Positions 11,792-18,519 of a stretch of 20,000 nucleotides of DNA are shown here, one piece after another (positions within the stretch are counted from its first letter, which is position 1; each line of letters begins with the position of its first letter). Both the position numbers and the translations under genes were made by a program. The stretch is taken from IMG/VR virus record IMGVR_UViG_3300025141_000074; one strand, written 5' to 3'. A model generated the notes under the pieces. That model saw only the letters and a program-made list of their open reading frames with translations. It made no database searches and had not been told where the DNA came from. This DNA comes from an uncultured virus (IMG/VR IMGVR_UViG_3300025141_000074). Taxonomy: Duplodnaviria; Heunggongvirae; Uroviricota; Caudoviricetes.

Positions 11792-12070
11792 ATGGATATT
11801 AATTCTGTTCCTATGGTGCGTATTCACTGGGTTGATGCCCGTGATACGGAAACTGGTTGGCTGGATATCAAGGATATCCTCAAGGCCCCACTTGCAAACT
11901 GCATGGAGGTTGGCTGGATGATGGTGAATAATGACGAGAAGGTCGTGATCATGCGCTCGTGGTGCAAGGACAAGGATGACAACAGCGGTGGTGGTGTAAC
12001 AGCTATACCCAGTGGTTGGGTAAAGAAAATAGAATATTTGAGTGTGGGACATGCAGACGTACGAAATTAA
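11792..12070 (+). CDS. Conserved hypothetical phage protein
   Basis: V.I.W.DA....GW...C..VGW...IP.GW...IE pattern, common in small phage proteins. Confidence 0.75.
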   Translation: MDINSVPMVRIHWVDARDTETGWLDIKDILKAPLANCMEVGWMMVNNDEKVVIMRSWCKDKDDNSGGGVTAIPSGWVKKIEYLSVGHADVRN

Positions 12071-12440
12071 CTTATGGCAAAATAAAAAGGTTATCGAGAA
12101 GGTAGTCAAGCAGTTTGAGGGTGATGAGAAGGTGCTGGAATTTATCAAGAACAATTTTGATAAGGATGAGGAATTACCTAGACTGGACCGCGAAAAAGGA
12201 TATCTTCGTCCTAAAAAGAGTGATATAATAATTACATGGTCAAAAGTAGCTACTTATGTTCGCAAAAATGCACCAAAGAGACTGGGTCTCAATGAGCAGG
12301 AAGAGGAGCTTAAGGATACATTGGATAAGTCAATTACCCAGGAGACTATTAATGAATGGGGTAAAAATGAGATGTTTAGGCAAGTAAGAAAGCATTATTG
12401 GGGTCACCCCAATGCAAAAGGACAAGAAGATATTAGATAA
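12051..12440 (+). CDS. Hypothetical protein
   Basis: ORF overlapping the upstream gene. Confidence 0.7.
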   Translation: MQTYEINLWQNKKVIEKVVKQFEGDEKVLEFIKNNFDKDEELPRLDREKGYLRPKKSDIIITWSKVATYVRKNAPKRLGLNEQEEELKDTLDKSITQETINEWGKNEMFRQVRKHYWGHPNAKGQEDIR

Positions 12441-12456
12441 GCGACTAGGATGGACG

Positions 12457-12684
12457 ATGAAAAAGAACACGAAGAAGGAAGGATTGACACCCAAGCAAAA
12501 ATGGGTGTTTGAGGCCATCAAGGACTTCATTCAACAGAATGGACATTCACCCTCTTATGAGGAGATCAAGCAGCTGATGGGGGTACGCTCCAAGAGTAAT
12601 GTGCATGCATATGTGCATAGATTAGCGACACGTGGATGGATAGGATTTGGAAATGGCAGAAATCGGTCAATTTACATTTTATAA
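12457..12684 (+). CDS. LexA-like DNA-binding domain only (no peptidase domain)
   Basis: LTPKQKWVFEAIKDFIQQNGHSPSYEEIKQLMGVRSKSNVHAYVHRLATRGWI...RSI. Confidence 0.88.
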   Translation: MKKNTKKEGLTPKQKWVFEAIKDFIQQNGHSPSYEEIKQLMGVRSKSNVHAYVHRLATRGWIGFGNGRNRSIYIL

Positions 12685-12747
12685 GGGGTCACCATAGTGA
12701 TATATTTGCTCAAAAGTTTTTTTTATTTACGTACCGGGGATGAAACT

Positions 12748-12941
12748 GGTGCCACAGTGACACATTTACTGATTAAGCTATATAAATCAATCATTTATTG
12801 TGTGGCACCTATGTGTCACTACTCTAGACGACGCAAGGCGCTTTTTTGTTTTTTACAAAACAAAATGAGTAAAAATATAACTATACCAGGGGTTTACAAG
12901 TGGTAGATGAACGATTGAAAGGTGCCACAAGTGGTGCCACA
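12748..12941. repeat. GTG(C/A)CACA repeat set flanking an IHF-consensus site
   Basis: GGTGCCACA 12748, 12921, 12933; inverted TGTGGCACC 12801; AGTGACACAT 12756 / ATGTGTCACT 12811; AATCAATCATTTA 12785-12797 fits WATCAANNNNTTR. Confidence 0.75.
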
Positions 12942-13577
12942 AATGTGGTCAAAAAGAGGCAATGGATTCCAGGTGAAAAGGGCCATGGACGCCCAGGAGT
13001 TCCTGGAAGTGGTGGAGCTAAACACCATCCACTCAGGGCTGATGGATTGACTGACAAGCAACAGATCTTTGTTAAGATATTTACAGAGAATGAAGGTAGG
13101 ATGACACCCACTGAATGTGCTAGGCAAGCTGGTTATGCTGAAGGATCGGCGAGTATAACTGCATCTGTTTTATTAAATGGTAAAAGATACCCTAAGGTGG
13201 TAGAAGCTATCCTCGCACGACGTGCTGAGATGGAAAAGACGCATGAGGTTAAACTAAATAAACATGTACAGGAATTGGCTAGGCTGCGTGAAAGGGCTCT
13301 TAATGAGAAGTCTTATTCTGCTGCTGTTAATGCTGAGCGCTTGCGAGGGCAAGCTGCGGGATTGTACATCGATAGAAAAGAAATTCGAACGGGTTCAATT
13401 GACAGTATGTCTAGAGAGGACGTTTTAAACAAGTTAAAGGAAATAGGATTAGATGGAAAATTTAAAAAGGAAGGCAATCAAACTGTCCTTTCGGTCGAAG
13501 AGAAATCCAGTAGCGATGGAGCTGAAGACATCACCGAAATACAAACAGAGGATAGTGAAAGACAAGACAAAGTATGA
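12900..13577 (+). CDS. terS: Terminase small subunit
   Basis: LTDKQQIFV...TECARQAGYA...AS.LL...P.V pattern of the Terminase_2 family; SAAVNAE..RG...GLY. Confidence 0.85.
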   Translation: MVDERLKGATSGATNVVKKRQWIPGEKGHGRPGVPGSGGAKHHPLRADGLTDKQQIFVKIFTENEGRMTPTECARQAGYAEGSASITASVLLNGKRYPKVVEAILARRAEMEKTHEVKLNKHVQELARLRERALNEKSYSAAVNAERLRGQAAGLYIDRKEIRTGSIDSMSREDVLNKLKEIGLDGKFKKEGNQTVLSVEEKSSSDGAEDITEIQTEDSERQDKV

Positions 13578-13981
13578 CCGTAAAACCGGAAACAAACTTT
13601 TGGAAGAGTTTAAAGACATTATTAGACGGTGGTGACTATATTGTTTCACGCCTTGAATCATATGTCACACCGGGTTTTCCCGATTGCATAATATTTCACA
13701 ATGTTACAGGATTCTTCACAGTTGAATTAAAGATAGTTCAACCTAATAATAAAATACACCTCTCTCCCTTCCAAATTTCCTGGAATTCACGTCATGCGAT
13801 AGCAGGAGCCCATTCTTACATCTTAGTTAACCTACCCCTCAAGGGTACGGTTAAACTGTTTCACGGGTGTAAAACAAAGGAACTAGGGCATAGCACCGTG
13901 GACCAAGTGCCCGGGTTATACGAGGGAAGGCTCGAGGACCTAGATTGGCTTAAACTCCCAAACTCCTGCAAAAACCCTTAA
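13574..13981 (+). CDS. PD-(D/E)xK nuclease (VRR-NUC / Holliday junction resolvase-like)
   Basis: E..FW, RLES..TPGFPD...FTVELK, LSPFQISW. Confidence 0.85.
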   Translation: MTVKPETNFWKSLKTLLDGGDYIVSRLESYVTPGFPDCIIFHNVTGFFTVELKIVQPNNKIHLSPFQISWNSRHAIAGAHSYILVNLPLKGTVKLFHGCKTKELGHSTVDQVPGLYEGRLEDLDWLKLPNSCKNP

Positions 13982-14163
13982 ACCTCACTATATGGGCCGT
14001 GGATCCTGTGGTCCGGGCGCCCGGCGCGCAGCTTCTTCCTGTCAAGTTCAAACTCCGAAACTCCATAGGGGAAGCCAAAATCCTTAAATGATAATACAGG
14101 GTCAGGATCCTGGATGCCCGGGGCGCAGCTGGAGTGCGTCAGGAAAAAAGTTCAAATGAGCTG

Positions 14164-14192
14164 TTGCATTGTGGATAACTTTATGTTATAAT
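14164..14192 (+). promoter_or_regulatory. sigma70 promoter with extended -10 and a DnaA box in the spacer
   Basis: TTGCAT-17bp-TATAAT with TG at 14184-14185; TGTGGATAA at 14170-14178. Confidence 0.82.
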
Positions 14193-14198
14193 AAGGGT

Positions 14199-14279
14199 AG
14201 AAATAGAGTATTTATAAGCGCAAGTATACTTGGTCTGTTTGTATGGTTAAAAGCCCGTACTCTATTTCTTATAAATAGA
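14199..14279 (+). ncRNA. Putative structured 5' leader
   Basis: 12-bp stem 14199-14210/14258-14269 enclosing palindrome CAAGTATACTTG (14221-14232) and hairpin GTATGG-TTAAAAGC-CCGTAC; alternative hairpin 14261-14279. Confidence 0.5.
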
Positions 14280-14280
14280 A

Positions 14281-14505
14281 ATGGAGCAAAATATGGTTGT
14301 AGATGATACAATAAGCCAAGCACTCAATAGGATTGCTGATGGCATAGAAGAAAGTAATGCATTATTAGATAGGATTGCGAATCATTATGATGGGGTTGTT
14401 CCCATTATGACACGCAATCAAAAGAGAGCTGAAGCGTTAGCCGAGGAGCAAGAGCAAACTTTTGCACAAGGTATAAAGAACATCTTTAGTCCTCAAGAGC
14501 ATTAA
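14281..14505 (+). CDS. Small acidic helical hypothetical protein
   Basis: 74-aa ORF downstream of a strong promoter; its stop codon runs into an AAACTCC doublet. Confidence 0.75.
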   Translation: MEQNMVVDDTISQALNRIADGIEESNALLDRIANHYDGVVPIMTRNQKRAEALAEEQEQTFAQGIKNIFSPQEH

Positions 14506-14760
14506 ACTCCTAAACTCCCATAGGTTATCTATAAGTAAAAATTGTGGATAACCTGTGGATAATTTGGGCACCGGGGGCGCTGCGCGCTGACGCAAACTCC
14601 CGTTAAAAAACATAAGGCTTTCTGCCGTTTTGTGCGAGCTTCATTGTTCCCACCGGGCGCGCCCGGGATTTCCGTGGAGCGATGAGCTTTGGAAAATAAG
14701 AATGGCTGATTTGCTTGTGTCCCGGGCCTTAAATAAATACGCCTGGACCCTGAATACCTG

Positions 14761-14789
14761 TTGACCTTCCAGGAAGCAGGTGGTAAAGA
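14761..14789 (+). promoter_or_regulatory. Candidate sigma70 promoter
   Basis: TTGACC-17bp-TAAAGA with extended TG; lacks the final T of the -10 element. Confidence 0.45.
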
Positions 14790-14828
14790 TGGTATTTAAA
14801 CGAAGAGATGGGAAGAAAGAGAAAGAAA

Positions 14829-14921
14829 ATGGCGCATTTAATAGGTATTTTAATACTCGGAACCGTGAAGGTTGCAGCTGGAGCTGCAGTCATTTGGATC
14901 CTCGTGCAGCTGCTGGGGTGA
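14829..14921 (+). CDS. 30-aa hydrophobic peptide (not in ORF track)
   Basis: MAHLIGILILGTVKVAAGAAVIWILVQLLG; purine-rich leader; possible in-frame start at 14808; followed by an AAACTCC doublet. Confidence 0.55.
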   Translation: MAHLIGILILGTVKVAAGAAVIWILVQLLG

Positions 14922-15061
14922 TGTAAACTCCCGTAAACTCCCTTAACCTCACTAAACTGCAAATGTTTGGTCTTTGGTTTCGGGCACCGGGCGCGCCCGG
15001 GTGGAGTGGCGATGGAGATGAGACTTGGTCAAAGTTATCCACAAGAAAAAGAAAGATTGGG

Positions 15062-15090
15062 TTGAGATGAATTACATTTGATGATATAAT
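15062..15090 (+). promoter_or_regulatory. sigma70 promoter with extended -10
   Basis: TTGAGA-17bp-TATAAT, TG at 15082-15083; DnaA box just upstream at 15035. Confidence 0.8.
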
Positions 15091-15094
15091 GATG

Positions 15095-15263
15095 ATATGT
15101 GTTGGTAGCCACACATATAAAAAAGGACTACCAGTCTAAGCTGAGGAGAACCCAGTGAACGCTTATGCGTACGGAAGTGTATAAGGGCTTCCATAAGCAA
15201 CATAGTTGCCAGACGCTAGACAAGATGAGGCAAGATAAACGGAGTTATTCGGCTCTTGCCTCA
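15095..15263 (+). ncRNA. Putative ~165-nt small RNA with a 5' pseudoknot
   Basis: Own promoter, no credible ORF; stems 15095-15102/15111-15118, pseudoknot 15103-15108/15128-15133, 15161-15166/15193-15198, 15173-15177/15188-15192, 15226-15235/15254-15263. Confidence 0.65.
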
Positions 15264-15395
15264 CAAACTCCCTTGCAAACTCCTATTCCAATCTAATTGC
15301 CCATTAATACGAATCAGTTCCCGGGCGCGCACAAACTCCCACAAACTCCTATTCCAATCTAATTGCCTATTAATACGAATCAGTTCCCGGGGGCG
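15262..15395 (+). repeat. Tandem duplication of a ~66-68 bp module
   Basis: 50-bp core 15276-15325 and 15342-15391 differ at one position. Confidence 0.95.
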
Positions 15396-15432
15396 CCTGT
15401 CTTCAGGCACGGCAGTTCAGATTATTAGGCAT

Positions 15433-15460
15433 AAAAAAAGGGCGAACATTGTTCGCCCTT
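15433..15460 (-). terminator. Intrinsic terminator (possibly bidirectional)
   Basis: AAGGGCGAAC-ATT-GTTCGCCCTT with an A-run on the left (U-tract on the minus strand), just downstream of ORF 15482..15769. Confidence 0.85.
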
Positions 15461-15481
15461 CTTATAACTATGTGGATAGGT

Positions 15482-15769
15482 TTACATAGTTAAACCCATT
15501 CTTTTCAAGATGTATCCAACATCACCTTGCAGTCTTTTAATCAAGTCAAGTCTTGCCTCCTTATCTTCTGCAACCCACTCAACGAGTGAGTTCATTAGTA
15601 CACCACTAATTAGTTTCCAATCCATACTGTCTTTTGCAGGAACTTTACTAATCAGTTGTTCCAAGTCTCCAATACTTGCTTGGTCTTTGGAGTATTCTAT
15701 TACTTCCTTCATTACAGGAGTAATATCAACGTTGTTGATTGATTTCGTAGTAGTTAAATCGTTTGGCAT
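15482..15769 (-). CDS. Hypothetical helical protein, stand-alone leftward gene
   Basis: 95 aa, GAAAGGA RBS, own terminator. Confidence 0.8.
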   Translation of the reverse strand: MPNDLTTTKSINNVDITPVMKEVIEYSKDQASIGDLEQLISKVPAKDSMDWKLISGVLMNSLVEWVAEDKEARLDLIKRLQGDVGYILKRMGLTM

Positions 15770-15908
15770 AATTACCTATCCTTTCTATTTCTAATTAATA
15801 GATATCATGCATCATCAACCATTGATATAGCTAAATGCAATTAGTTGTGGATAACTATTGTCAATAGCTAATAGTAGTAAGTTGTGGATAACCTGTGGAT
15901 AACTGCGC

Positions 15909-15985
15909 CCGGGCTCTTATTGCGGCTCACTCCGTTCGCCGCCCGGTCCAGACTCCCAAACTGCGAGGGGGGAACCCCCCTTTCG
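15909..15985. other. Pair of GC-rich DNA hairpins upstream of terL
   Basis: GCGGC-TCACTCCGTTC-GCCGC (15922-15942) and AGGGGGG-AA-CCCCCCT (15966-15981). Confidence 0.6.
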
Positions 15986-16078
15986 ACTTACCTCCTCTAG
16001 AATTTTGCGAAGGCAAGATTGAGAGTGACAATCACCCCAAAAAACGTTATGACTCTTATTTGTAAAAATTTTTAAAAA

Positions 16079-17539
16079 ATGGAAACAGTTTCGAATTTAG
16101 AATCCCTCGATACAAACACGCTCAAGCTACTTTTAAGAAATGAGCTTGCAAGAAAGCAAGAAGCCTCCCAGGCAGATTTTTTAAAATTTGTGAAAGTTGT
16201 TTGGCCAGACTTCATCGAAGGAAAACATCACAAAATTTATGCGGAGAAATTGAACCGTATAGCAAATGGGGACCTAAAAAGGCTTATTGTCAATATGCCT
16301 CCTCGTCATACAAAATCAGAATTTGCTTCACACCTCTTTCCGGCCTTTTATATGGGCCGTCACCCAAAAGCCAAATTAATTCAGACAACACATACTGGGG
16401 AATTAGCCATTCGCTTTGGACGTAAGGCCAAGAACATGATAGAGTCCTCGGATTATGAAAAAGTTTTTCCAGATGTCAGGTTGGCAGCCGATTCAAAAGC
16501 TGCTGGACGTTGGGAGTCTAATCATGGTGGTGAGTATTTTGCTGCTGGTGTGGGTGGTGCTATCACTGGGCGTGGTGCTGATCTCCTTATTATTGATGAT
16601 CCTCATTCGGAACAAGATGCTCTTTCACCACACGTTTTGGAGCAACATTACGAGTGGTACACTTCTGGTCCTCGTCAGCGTTTACAGCCAGGAGGCGCTA
16701 TAGTTCTTGTTATGACAAGATGGTCTGTCAAAGACCTCACTGGTAAATTGCTCGAGGCCCAAGGAAAAAGTGAAATGTCGGACGAGTGGGAGATCGTGGA
16801 ATTTCCTGCCATTATAAAAGATAAACCCATGTGGGGAAATTTCTGGACCATGGACGGATTGCAAGGCGTCAAGGCTTCCATCCCACTAACCAAGTGGCAA
16901 GCACAATGGATGCAGCAGCCTACTTCCGAGGAAGGTGCACTTATAAAACGTGAGTGGTGGCAGATATGGGAAGAGGAAAAGATTCCTCAATTGGAATTTA
17001 TTATTCAGTCCTATGACACAGCATTCTCCAAAAAAGAAACAGCCGATTATTCAGCGATTACGACGTGGGGCATATTTGACCCCGACAACGGAAAGGGAAA
17101 GGCCCTTATCCTGTTGGATGCGAAGCGTGATCGGTGGAATTTTCCGGAGCTAAAAAAGGAGGCCATGGACCAATTTAAGTACTGGGAACCGGAGATGGTT
17201 ATTGTGGAAGCGAAGGCTTCTGGGCTACCATTAACTCATGAGTTGCAAAAGATGGGAATACCTGTTATAAATTTTACACCCTCAAAAGGAAACGATAAAC
17301 ATTCGAGGGTAAACAGCGTGGCTCCACTATTCGAAGCAGGAGCCGTTTGGGCGCCCAAAAAAGATTTCGCTGAAGAGGTTATCGAAGAATGCGCAGCATT
17401 CCCTTTCGGCGACAATGATGACTACGTGGATTCTACCACGCAGGCCTTGATGAAATATAGACAAGGCTACCACGTTATGCTAAAAGATGACTTTGAAGAT
17501 GAGCCAAGTGCTGAAACCGCGGGGAGGGTTTACTACTAA
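16079..17539 (+). CDS. terL: Terminase large subunit
   Basis: VNMPPRHTKS Walker A, LIIDDP Walker B, VMTRW, RNase H-like nuclease SYDTA...IVEAKASG...DDYVDS. Confidence 0.97.
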   Translation: METVSNLESLDTNTLKLLLRNELARKQEASQADFLKFVKVVWPDFIEGKHHKIYAEKLNRIANGDLKRLIVNMPPRHTKSEFASHLFPAFYMGRHPKAKLIQTTHTGELAIRFGRKAKNMIESSDYEKVFPDVRLAADSKAAGRWESNHGGEYFAAGVGGAITGRGADLLIIDDPHSEQDALSPHVLEQHYEWYTSGPRQRLQPGGAIVLVMTRWSVKDLTGKLLEAQGKSEMSDEWEIVEFPAIIKDKPMWGNFWTMDGLQGVKASIPLTKWQAQWMQQPTSEEGALIKREWWQIWEEEKIPQLEFIIQSYDTAFSKKETADYSAITTWGIFDPDNGKGKALILLDAKRDRWNFPELKKEAMDQFKYWEPEMVIVEAKASGLPLTHELQKMGIPVINFTPSKGNDKHSRVNSVAPLFEAGAVWAPKKDFAEEVIEECAAFPFGDNDDYVDSTTQALMKYRQGYHVMLKDDFEDEPSAETAGRVYY

Positions 17540-18519
17540 TGGCAGATTATACAGTATTAGAAAACGCATCGGAAAGAGAACCTAGAACATGGTGGAAGGA
17601 CCCTTTATTTTATAAAGGACTTGGACAATTTCTTCCCACTGTAGGAAAAGATTATTGGAATACCGCCATGTCGTCAGCTGGGGGTGTATCTGATTTTATT
17701 CCTGGACTTAACCTACTTAATCCTGGGGAATTTTTCATAAATAGAATGTTCAGGGATGAAGAGGCGATGGAGTCAGACCCAACGTTCGATATAGTCTCTG
17801 ACAGAGAAATTAAAAAAATTAAAAATGACCCTTATTATGGTCCTCTCTTAGAGGATATGATGGCTGAAGGGGTAACGGAAGATGATGCGATTTTTATGTT
17901 TAAAGCGGCTCCATTCATGAGCCAAGATCCTAACGAATCGTGGCTTGACTGGGCAATGGATGGGCCAGCGTGGAAAGAACGCGCAAAGGCGTTTCCATAT
18001 GTTGGTGGTGATATGTTACAGATGATTGGAAATGAAATATTTCAGCCAAGTTTGGTTGATGATTTTAATCCGTACGCGGAAGGTTTTGGAAAAGCGCGTA
18101 TGTGGGCCAACATCGCTCCTCAAGTTGCCAATATGTATTTTACACGAGGAACTGGCGCACCTATAGTAGGGGTGTCAACTTTGATGAATAAGCTTTCTCC
18201 AAAACTTAGAAAAACAATTCAACAAGGATTACCTGTGACTACAGGTGCACCTAATAAGTGGTCAAAGTTTGGAAGAAACATGGTCCTTCAAGCACCAACT
18301 AATCCTCTTAATCCTTGGGGCATGAATTTTTCAGCAGAAGCGGCTGAGCCAAGTAATATTTCAGATTCATGGGATCGCGACCCAGTAGTATTTGATTCTT
18401 ATATGCAAGACAAATTAAACAATTATAGCCCACCAAAGCCAAAACCAAAACCTAAACCAAGAATAGGAATTGGATTTGGCGACGGCCCAACACATTGGGG
18501 CGGCGGGGATATTGAGTAA
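17539..18519 (+). CDS. Hypothetical, probable virion/ejection protein
   Basis: TAATG-coupled to terL; acidic N-terminal half, PKPKPKPKP low-complexity tail. Function inferred from position only. Confidence 0.6.
   Translation: MADYTVLENASEREPRTWWKDPLFYKGLGQFLPTVGKDYWNTAMSSAGGVSDFIPGLNLLNPGEFFINRMFRDEEAMESDPTFDIVSDREIKKIKNDPYYGPLLEDMMAEGVTEDDAIFMFKAAPFMSQDPNESWLDWAMDGPAWKERAKAFPYVGGDMLQMIGNEIFQPSLVDDFNPYAEGFGKARMWANIAPQVANMYFTRGTGAPIVGVSTLMNKLSPKLRKTIQQGLPVTTGAPNKWSKFGRNMVLQAPTNPLNPWGMNFSAEAAEPSNISDSWDRDPVVFDSYMQDKLNNYSPPKPKPKPKPRIGIGFGDGPTHWGGGDIE

Follow-up and report, generated by a model that had tools for sequence, protein, structure and literature searches.

CRISPR arrays and solitary-repeat RNA anti-CRISPRs are examples of variable non-coding arrays and of RNA-based counter-defence, as may be encountered here. 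Mimicry by a phage RNA has a precedent in pseudo-ToxI, as described in PMC5086642, and the units of UG27 reverse-transcriptase ncRNA arrays are reported to share one structure of ~150 nt and to template cDNA beside the reverse transcriptase (bioRxiv 10.64898/2026.09.22.753630). We describe a locus that is one arrangement in a family of promoter-driven, non-coding arrays of separately conserved RNA folds, located between the terminase genes of HTVC023P-type marine phages.

The window, i.e. the whole stretch of 20 000 nt analysed, is a phage fragment with genes for a helicase, DNA polymerase A and both terminase subunits (terS and terL). Its TerL is 65.5% identical to that of 023Pt_psg01, 64.0% to that of Pelagibacter phage HTVC027P and 55.8% to that of HTVC023P, which identifies the source as an uncultured HTVC023P-type marine phage. 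The gap between terS and terL (~2.1 kb, 13981–16078) holds seven DnaA-box matches (at 14170, 14543, 14554, 15035, 15846, 15883 and 15894), 11 AAACTCC motifs, all on one strand, and five GC-rich palindromic repeats, against none, two and none, respectively, in the remaining 17.9 kb. This clustering could mark an origin, a packaging site or a site of DnaA titration. The features of the region are as follows:

12900..13577, + strand: terminase small subunit (terS; phrog_51, E 6e-13), upstream boundary of the region
14164..14269, + strand: second promoter TTGCAT-17-TATAAT (14164–14192) with a DnaA box in its spacer, and second module RNA (14199–14269)
15035..15043, + strand: DnaA-box consensus at fixed spacing, 27 nt before the -35 and 50 nt before the -10
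15062..15090, + strand: sigma-70-type promoter with extended -10 (TTGAGA-17-TATAAT with TG, 11/12)
15097..15133, + strand: module 1, H-type pseudoknot (P1 15097–15101/15112–15116; P2 15104–15110/15126–15132; A-rich loop 3)
15134..15221, + strand: module 2, three-way junction with k-junction-like tandem GA/GA, both distal loops variable in relatives (P1 15134–41/15215–21; P2 15145–52/15186–92; P3 15197–15201/15205–09)
15154..15183, + strand: module 3, 30 nt long and nested in the P2 loop of module 2; in loci L002 and L217 it stands free within another stem
15226..15263, + strand: module 4, commonest hairpin of the clade; its internal loop is conserved, while the outer stem varies and covaries
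15265..15396, + strand: AAACTCC repeats and a 55-nt duplication (15276–15330, 15342–15396), behind the array
15432..15466, no strand assigned: terminator-like hairpin, with a long T-run on the - strand (ending a 95-aa ORF) and a weaker one on the +
16079..17539, + strand: terminase large subunit (terL), downstream boundary of the region

The two copies of the 55-nt tandem duplication (15276–15396) are 96% identical, and locus L001 has a single copy.

An earlier note on this DNA had taken 15095–15263 for one stand-alone RNA of ~165 nt. Instead, it is one arrangement of four modules, and the unit of conservation is the single module; this modular array, rather than a single RNA, is our finding, and its architecture is well supported. 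A search with TerL found 80 loci; identity was 83% or more in 16 of them, 13 of which extended more than 2 kb upstream. All 13 carry the hairpin core, one the pseudoknot, one the middle insert and none the junction. As read from the sequences, modules have been exchanged, added and nested between close relatives. Indeed, locus L496 is 95.8% identical to the window over 1251 nt up to 15139 and 100% identical over 106 nt from 15218, and the middle module between these near-identical flanks differs from that of the window, while L001, with a 96.6% identical terL, has yet another middle module and an extra module behind the hairpin.

The same comparison bears on the earlier suggestion of a packaging-associated RNA, which would work with the terminase like the pRNA of phi29. 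The terS–terL position would suit such a role, and terL lies downstream on the same strand in 93/93 loci having it (of 244, among the matches listed; identity 63–100%). However, array content differs despite a 96.6% identical terL, the pseudoknot, junction and insert occur in one, none and one of the 13 close relatives, and the arrays lack the one structure conserved in all members that defines the phi29 type. As these phages, moreover, encode both TerS and TerL, we regard a packaging RNA as extremely unlikely.

From 355 anchor matches, 188 distinct arrays were delimited among the matches listed (58–391 nt, median 166), in a catalogue biased to arrays with one of three anchors and from which 119 stretches of a looser pattern scan (L081–L199) were left out. 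Fold stability was below z = -2 in 50 of 60 sampled arrays (2-nt block shuffles). Greedy clustering of the 188 arrays, again among the matches listed, gave 160 cores, 96 of them of at least 20 nt, in 134 architectures; 61/96 of these longer cores (among the matches listed) had at least two different neighbours on one side. Since cores are fragments, some modules being split in two and a few cores being flanks, distinct modules are fewer than cores, and we estimate their number at 50–70.

The surroundings of the arrays allow another explanation to be weighed, namely that the modules are cis-acting leader elements that determine the level of downstream early genes, whether as stabilizers, as riboswitch-like sensors or as sites of RNase processing. 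In favour of this, 65/188 arrays (among the matches listed) lead into a ribosome-binding site (RBS) and an ORF, the pseudoknot is nearly always first (35/36 contexts, see below), and the long constant stems of the HTVC027P lineage could conceivably be RNase III substrates. By contrast, 123/188 arrays (among the matches listed) end at AAACTCC-type repeats before any RBS-ATG, so that no gene is there to be regulated, and within the window no gene lies between the array and the next terminator-like hairpin. The same modules turn up whether or not an ORF lies downstream, in an order and at distances that change, and no riboswitch family matched the window or the source entries of array-bearing loci in Rfam. 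A cis-acting leader is thus rather unlikely. ORFs led by arrays matched no known anti-defence family (21 scanned), and only GP88 passed the Pfam cut-off. In loci L509, L565, L571 and L473, arrays often lead into early proteins of ~120 aa (phrog_36747, of unknown function).

The near-consensus extended -10 promoter of the earlier note is present and is the top of 20 sites in 12000–18000 (shuffles: 12.4 ± 3.7 sites of any grade). Upstream lies a motif that we take to be a DnaA box. Of the 245 matches listed, 198 had an upstream match to this box and 16 had none, 31 being too short. In 145 distinct arrays (among the matches listed), the -35 TTG stood at +27 from the start of the box in 101, and the -10 T/A/T/A/T at +50, 51, 52, 53 and 55 in 87/84/82/83/78%; the sequence of the promoter spacer varies while the geometry of box, -35 and -10 stays fixed. 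No credible ORF follows, as had been claimed: the - strand has only chance frames of 25–74 aa, and the + strand a 43-aa frame without a ribosome-binding site. The region folds at -57.2 kcal/mol (z -4.06, 0/200 shuffles as stable), and the opposite strand also folds better than chance (z -3.81), so that fold stability alone assigns no strand. An Rfam search gave no gathering-level match in the window, with nothing near the cut-off, nor in 60 source entries of array-bearing loci, where the sole find was a tRNA in L473 (527–599, 73.5 bits, anticodon UUU by alignment), ~600 nt upstream of an array.

The second promoter of the gap stands before the second module RNA, which sits ahead of a 74-aa ORF and folds with z -2.51 (5/200 shuffles as good); its inner hairpin is found again inside another array (L254). 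Modules of this second RNA (14164–14269) recur in other arrays. Between the two promoters, a 30-aa hydrophobic ORF without a Pfam match follows a purine-rich RBS (14829–14921), and relatives have similar hydrophobic mini-ORFs there.

The reading as a cassette-borne phage ncRNA with a genuine pseudoknot at its 5' end is borne out by conserved promoter spacing and by compensatory changes, which homologues show in pseudoknot, junction and hairpin, i.e. in three of the four modules. In module 1, the stem 15095–15102/15111–15118 and the complementarity of its loop (15103–15108) to 15128–15133 lie where they had been placed, and the A6 of the proposed linker is there, although the full linker is A6 plus GGA. 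In homologues, the pseudoknot helix extends to 15104–15110/15126–15132, and stem 1 keeps only five pairs. Relatives were found with a stem-only pattern (44 stretches); the complementary 3' strand was present in 38/45 distinct contexts, and the seven without it were dropped. In 35 of 36 distinct contexts with enough flank, the pseudoknot starts 5–6 nt after the -10 hexamer, and it would almost always be the first module of the transcript. An alignment of 10 variants shows two-sided change at two pairs of the pseudoknot helix (9 cells, 0/500 shuffles), a number of pairs that 234/500 shuffles also reach; these variants are related sequences of two subtypes with few independent events, and stem 1 was fixed by the search pattern. 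In L355, L461 and L467 the second of these subtypes is placed at the second promoter. A separate, second family of small pseudoknots, whose loop and 3' strand change in a fully compensatory way, occurs in L483, L497, L474 and L489 (six copies, two types).

Type III antitoxin monomers are H-type pseudoknots of ~34–45 nt, a description that module 1 also fits: with ~37 nt and an A-rich loop, it is close to the ToxI and antiQ monomers of 34–36 nt (PMC5086642). The 5' pseudoknot might act as a pseudo-antitoxin on a type III toxin of the host, as known from phage PhiTE, and the arrays do contain the second covarying pseudoknot family. The antitoxin role proposed earlier is nevertheless undermined by the lack of its defining tandem repeats, terminator and toxin: the pseudoknot is single-copy in the window and its relatives and without an Rfam match, no ORF follows in the window where a ToxN, CptN or TenpN gene would be expected, and none of the 21 ORFs examined downstream of arrays in relatives belongs to one of these families. 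Moreover, it is fixed at the transcript start, and an antitoxin would account for one module of dozens. We therefore consider this explanation improbable.

Module 2 was gathered by pattern scan in 39 distinct copies. P1 and P3 covary in 20 junction copies (94.9% of cells paired, 29 two-sided cells, 0/500 shuffles; slid controls pair in at most 60.8%), while P2 and the 5' GA were fixed by the search pattern; the invariance of the core in searched modules is likewise a consequence of pattern design. Of the 39 junctions, 27 have a tetraloop as their P2 loop, eight a loop of 11 nt, three another insert, of 31 nt, and one the 33-nt insert of the window; several relatives carry other modules in P3. 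In L336, L511, L555, L559 and L561, a purine-rich internal loop, which we liken to loop E motifs, replaces the short P3 hairpin, and the stems covary. In the description of k-junctions, the NC helix ends in tandem G.A/A.G, and the third helix is on the non-bulged strand (PMC4005666). In module 2, the flanking helices covary and GA/GA is kept, and we infer that its layout fits a k-junction.

Module 3 occurs in only two other viral contigs, there within its own stem. In the window, this nested insert makes the energy model favour GGAAG/CUUCC over the homologue-supported P2: the junction-breaking fold reaches -26.4 kcal/mol against -14.3 kcal/mol for a hand-built homologue fold, and the pair probability of GGAG/UUCC is 0.0. 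Given this preference, the nested variant may not fold like its relatives. Of the helices proposed earlier for this domain, the closing stem GUCUA/UAGAC stands at 15134–15138/15217–15221. GGAAG/CUUCC and CUG/CAG are indeed favoured in the window by the energy model (0.999 and 0.868), but homologues support another fold, and both stems are doubtful, as they join two modules found apart elsewhere. The GCUUAU/AUAAGC stem finds no support: its pair probability is 0.0 here, and one of its arms lies in an insert absent from 38/39 distinct homologous scaffolds.

Module 4 was traced by hairpin-core scans in 114 viral and at least 120 metagenome stretches, chance motif matches (L258, L327, L332) being dropped. 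Across 41 distinct flank pairs (among the matches listed), the outer stem forms its six inner pairs in 41/41, with 3–5 pair types for each; hairpin variants differ at the tip but retain the internal loop. The earlier note had this terminal stem rightly at 15226–15263, but it does not establish the 3' end of the RNA: the hairpin has no U-tract and was not called as a terminator, and because the core is often followed by more modules in relatives, with 13 different right-hand neighbours, 15263 is no established 3' end. The hairpin at 15432–15466 could be the 3' limit of the array transcript. A genome scan with the hairpin 18-mer gave 18 matches, none in marine alphaproteobacteria, and pointed to no host. 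The 18-mer sits in 13 copies (L438–L455) of an intergenic repeat that is found in Pontibacter, Nibribacter, Botryobacter and Rufibacter and looks to us like attC-type cassette sites. These bacterial repeats have no counterpart of the stem that flanks the phage hairpin, and the shared 18-mer is probably a coincidence.

Small ribozymes, too, typically combine conserved cores with variable distal loops, as seen in the modules. It is nonetheless very unlikely that the modules are ribozymes of unknown classes, self-cleaving or processing, as each of dozens of unrelated folds would need a new class; no known ribozyme family, which the earlier note had envisaged, matched by covariance model in the window, nor in the 60 source entries of array-bearing loci (Rfam).

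The arrays might also act as DNA, i.e. as single-strand hairpins, recombination cassettes or selfish, near-neutral repeats near an origin or packaging site. The clustering of DnaA boxes, AAACTCC motifs and palindromic repeats in the gap would suit such elements, as would the folding of both strands and the 18-mer shared with 13 copies of a bacterial repeat; besides, comparative methods do find ssDNA structures (PMC5737381). Against this, the arrays start exactly at a conserved promoter, pseudoknot and junction covary, the bacterial copies of the 18-mer do not share the flanking stem, and the strands are not equivalent: GNRA tetraloop hairpins number 41 on the + strand against 20 on the -, and 23 hairpin stems contain 14 G.U against two A.C. 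We thus give DNA-level elements a low probability, and the RNA of the window is real, structured and probably transcribed. Transcription of the array is itself weakly indicated, by RNA-library contigs that cover 15227–15264 in two of four runs (depth up to 103 in X2) and 14164–14418 in two of four; their loose ends run on into other sequence. The hint is weak, as these contigs, which are mostly from relatives and may include DNA, give no strand, ends or level; the runs were sampled at small shares (0.05–0.09), and the lack of cover at pseudoknot and junction is uninformative.

The cultured phages HTVC023P, HTVC027P, 023Pt_psg01 and DSL-LC04 have no 16-mer in common with the module library, and their sharing of 10–13-mers with it is not clearly above chance. 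HTVC027P nevertheless has, in the same gap, an unannotated promoter followed by ~430 nt of stem-closed modules (MN698241, about 17690–18200; z -4.80), and 023Pt_psg01 a similar stretch (z -4.62), whereas the leader of HTVC023P folds no better than shuffles (z +0.89). The promoter-driven hairpin array of HTVC027P lies just upstream of gp34/gp33 (L434 2200–2600, - strand), two genes described in PMC12753301 as highly expressed at 6–9 h. We gathered 80 HTVC027P-like loci, 35 of them extending more than 2 kb upstream. One constant stem recurs in 20 of 82 loci scanned in this lineage around ~20 different inserts (39 counting both strands), and two further scaffolds hold six and five inserts. Both flanks of the window's common hairpin surround another tip in L604, and L660 has a 16-mer and an 11-nt core in common with two modules of the window's clade; these two cases suggest that both lineages may draw on a common module pool. 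Most 14–16-mer matches in HTVC027P-like loci are due to chance and sit in coding DNA, and one HTVC027P loop had no match in viral contigs.

One module of this lineage is known to Rfam. Flavobacterium-1 (RF02976), which we believe was originally described in the same paper as the finding of ssDNA structures, is listed in Rfam as a single sRNA, an orphan motif. In HTVC027P and relatives it is one module of an array, found at eight loci (83–92 bits; cut-off 58.9) either inside the array or alone before terL:

L434 2190–2310 (MN698241 about 17750–17875, - strand), L596, L597, L601, L604, L609, L611 and L628: Flavobacterium-1

The covariance model (58.9 bits) did not match the window or 20 loci of its wider clade. 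As a movable module of HTVC027P-like pelagiphages, Flavobacterium-1 is probably a phage RNA rather than a Flavobacterium RNA, and the array would give this orphan motif a context.

What the arrays do is a reasoned guess. The conserved cores, disposable tips and rapid turnover are best accommodated if the modules are early-made, aptamer-like decoys for host proteins or signals, a reading that we favour tentatively, at a little under an even chance. The host RNA polymerase would transcribe the array soon after entry, from the sigma-70 promoter, upstream of which the DnaA box stands at a fixed position. Modules would fold independently of one another, each closed by its own stem, and each would present a conserved core (internal loop, junction or pseudoknot). 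As a natural aptamer or decoy, this core might bind a signal molecule of the host or one of its nucleases, defence sensors or RNA-binding proteins. Which set of modules is favoured would depend on the host strain, and these sets would be reshuffled by recombination between the closing stems and neighbouring modules that they share; the 5' pseudoknot may additionally protect the 5' end. In its broadest form, abundant marine phages would keep an evolving library of many dozens of natural RNA aptamers, in interchangeable and nestable arrays behind early promoters, each neutralizing a different host protein or signal, which we consider possible but less than evenly probable.

Alternatively, the modules could be antisense small RNAs whose loops are seeds pairing with mRNAs of the host or of rival phages. 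Some modules consist of a short, unique loop held by a closing stem, C/U-rich in some cases, and nearly every insert of one HTVC027P-lineage stem is unique; junctions and pseudoknots, however, leave little free seed. In addition, the shared substrings of 52 cores showed no excess over expectation against the window genes on either strand (476 versus 481 and 473 versus 476) or against Escherichia coli rRNA (421 versus 415.5 ± 6.0 in sense, 408 versus 410 in antisense), and blastn against 50 697 phage records gave no significant match; antisense action is accordingly unlikely. A 12-mer of module 3 in E. coli rRNA was within chance. As to particular targets of a decoy, anticodon-like 7-nt stem-loops, as expected of tRNA anticodon decoys, were not enriched in the arrays (21 on the + strand versus 29 on the -), and nor were T-loop mimics.

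The array reading is testable, as HTVC027P is cultured on Ca. Pelagibacter HTCC1062 and infection RNA-seq exists (PMC12753301). Structured RNAs in a hypervariable array, with purifying selection acting on their fold, would add an unrecognized layer to the phage–host arms race. If the aptamer-library reading is true, the arrays would do with RNA what anti-defence islands do with proteins, and new ligand-binding folds could be mined from them. Even without a decoy role, dozens of new covarying RNA folds are available, together with swap experiments made by nature. This module-array architecture appears to be undescribed: no description of such arrays in pelagiphages was found in open full text, subscription journals lying mostly outside that scope, and the main text of PMC9599517 contains none of the words ‘noncoding’, ‘intergenic’ and ‘DnaA’.

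Among known RNAs, the preQ1-I riboswitch presumably comes close to module 1, with a pseudoknot of five-pair P1, a 9–10 nt loop and an A-rich loop 3; what we take to be its ligand-pairing C position is G or A in module 1. There was no Rfam match to preQ1-I at E up to 10, and no queuosine genes follow. With the k-junctions of TPP riboswitches and rRNA, module 2 shares the tandem GA/GA and the third helix on the non-bulged strand (PMC4005666); unlike that of the TPP riboswitch, its loop has 2 nt, it has no TPP match and it is known here from sequence only. Unlike CRISPR arrays, the window array has no repeat-spacer period. A 16-bit match to CRISPR-DR4 lay on the opposite strand across a module junction and was treated as chance. 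As in the UG27 arrays, phage ncRNA units are gained and lost between close relatives (bioRxiv 10.64898/2026.09.22.753630), but the units of the present arrays measure 25–120 nt and differ in structure, and a reverse transcriptase (PF00078) was found in 0/5 related records, two of them complete. Finally, ToxI, antiQ and CptI are toxin-processed tandem repeats of one unit, whereas the arrays described here consist of dozens of unrelated single-copy folds, shuffled and nested, without a toxin gene; with these RNAs and with pseudo-ToxI of PhiTE they share a phage-encoded structured RNA, an H-type pseudoknot of similar size and a plausible decoy role (PMC5086642, PMC3475682).
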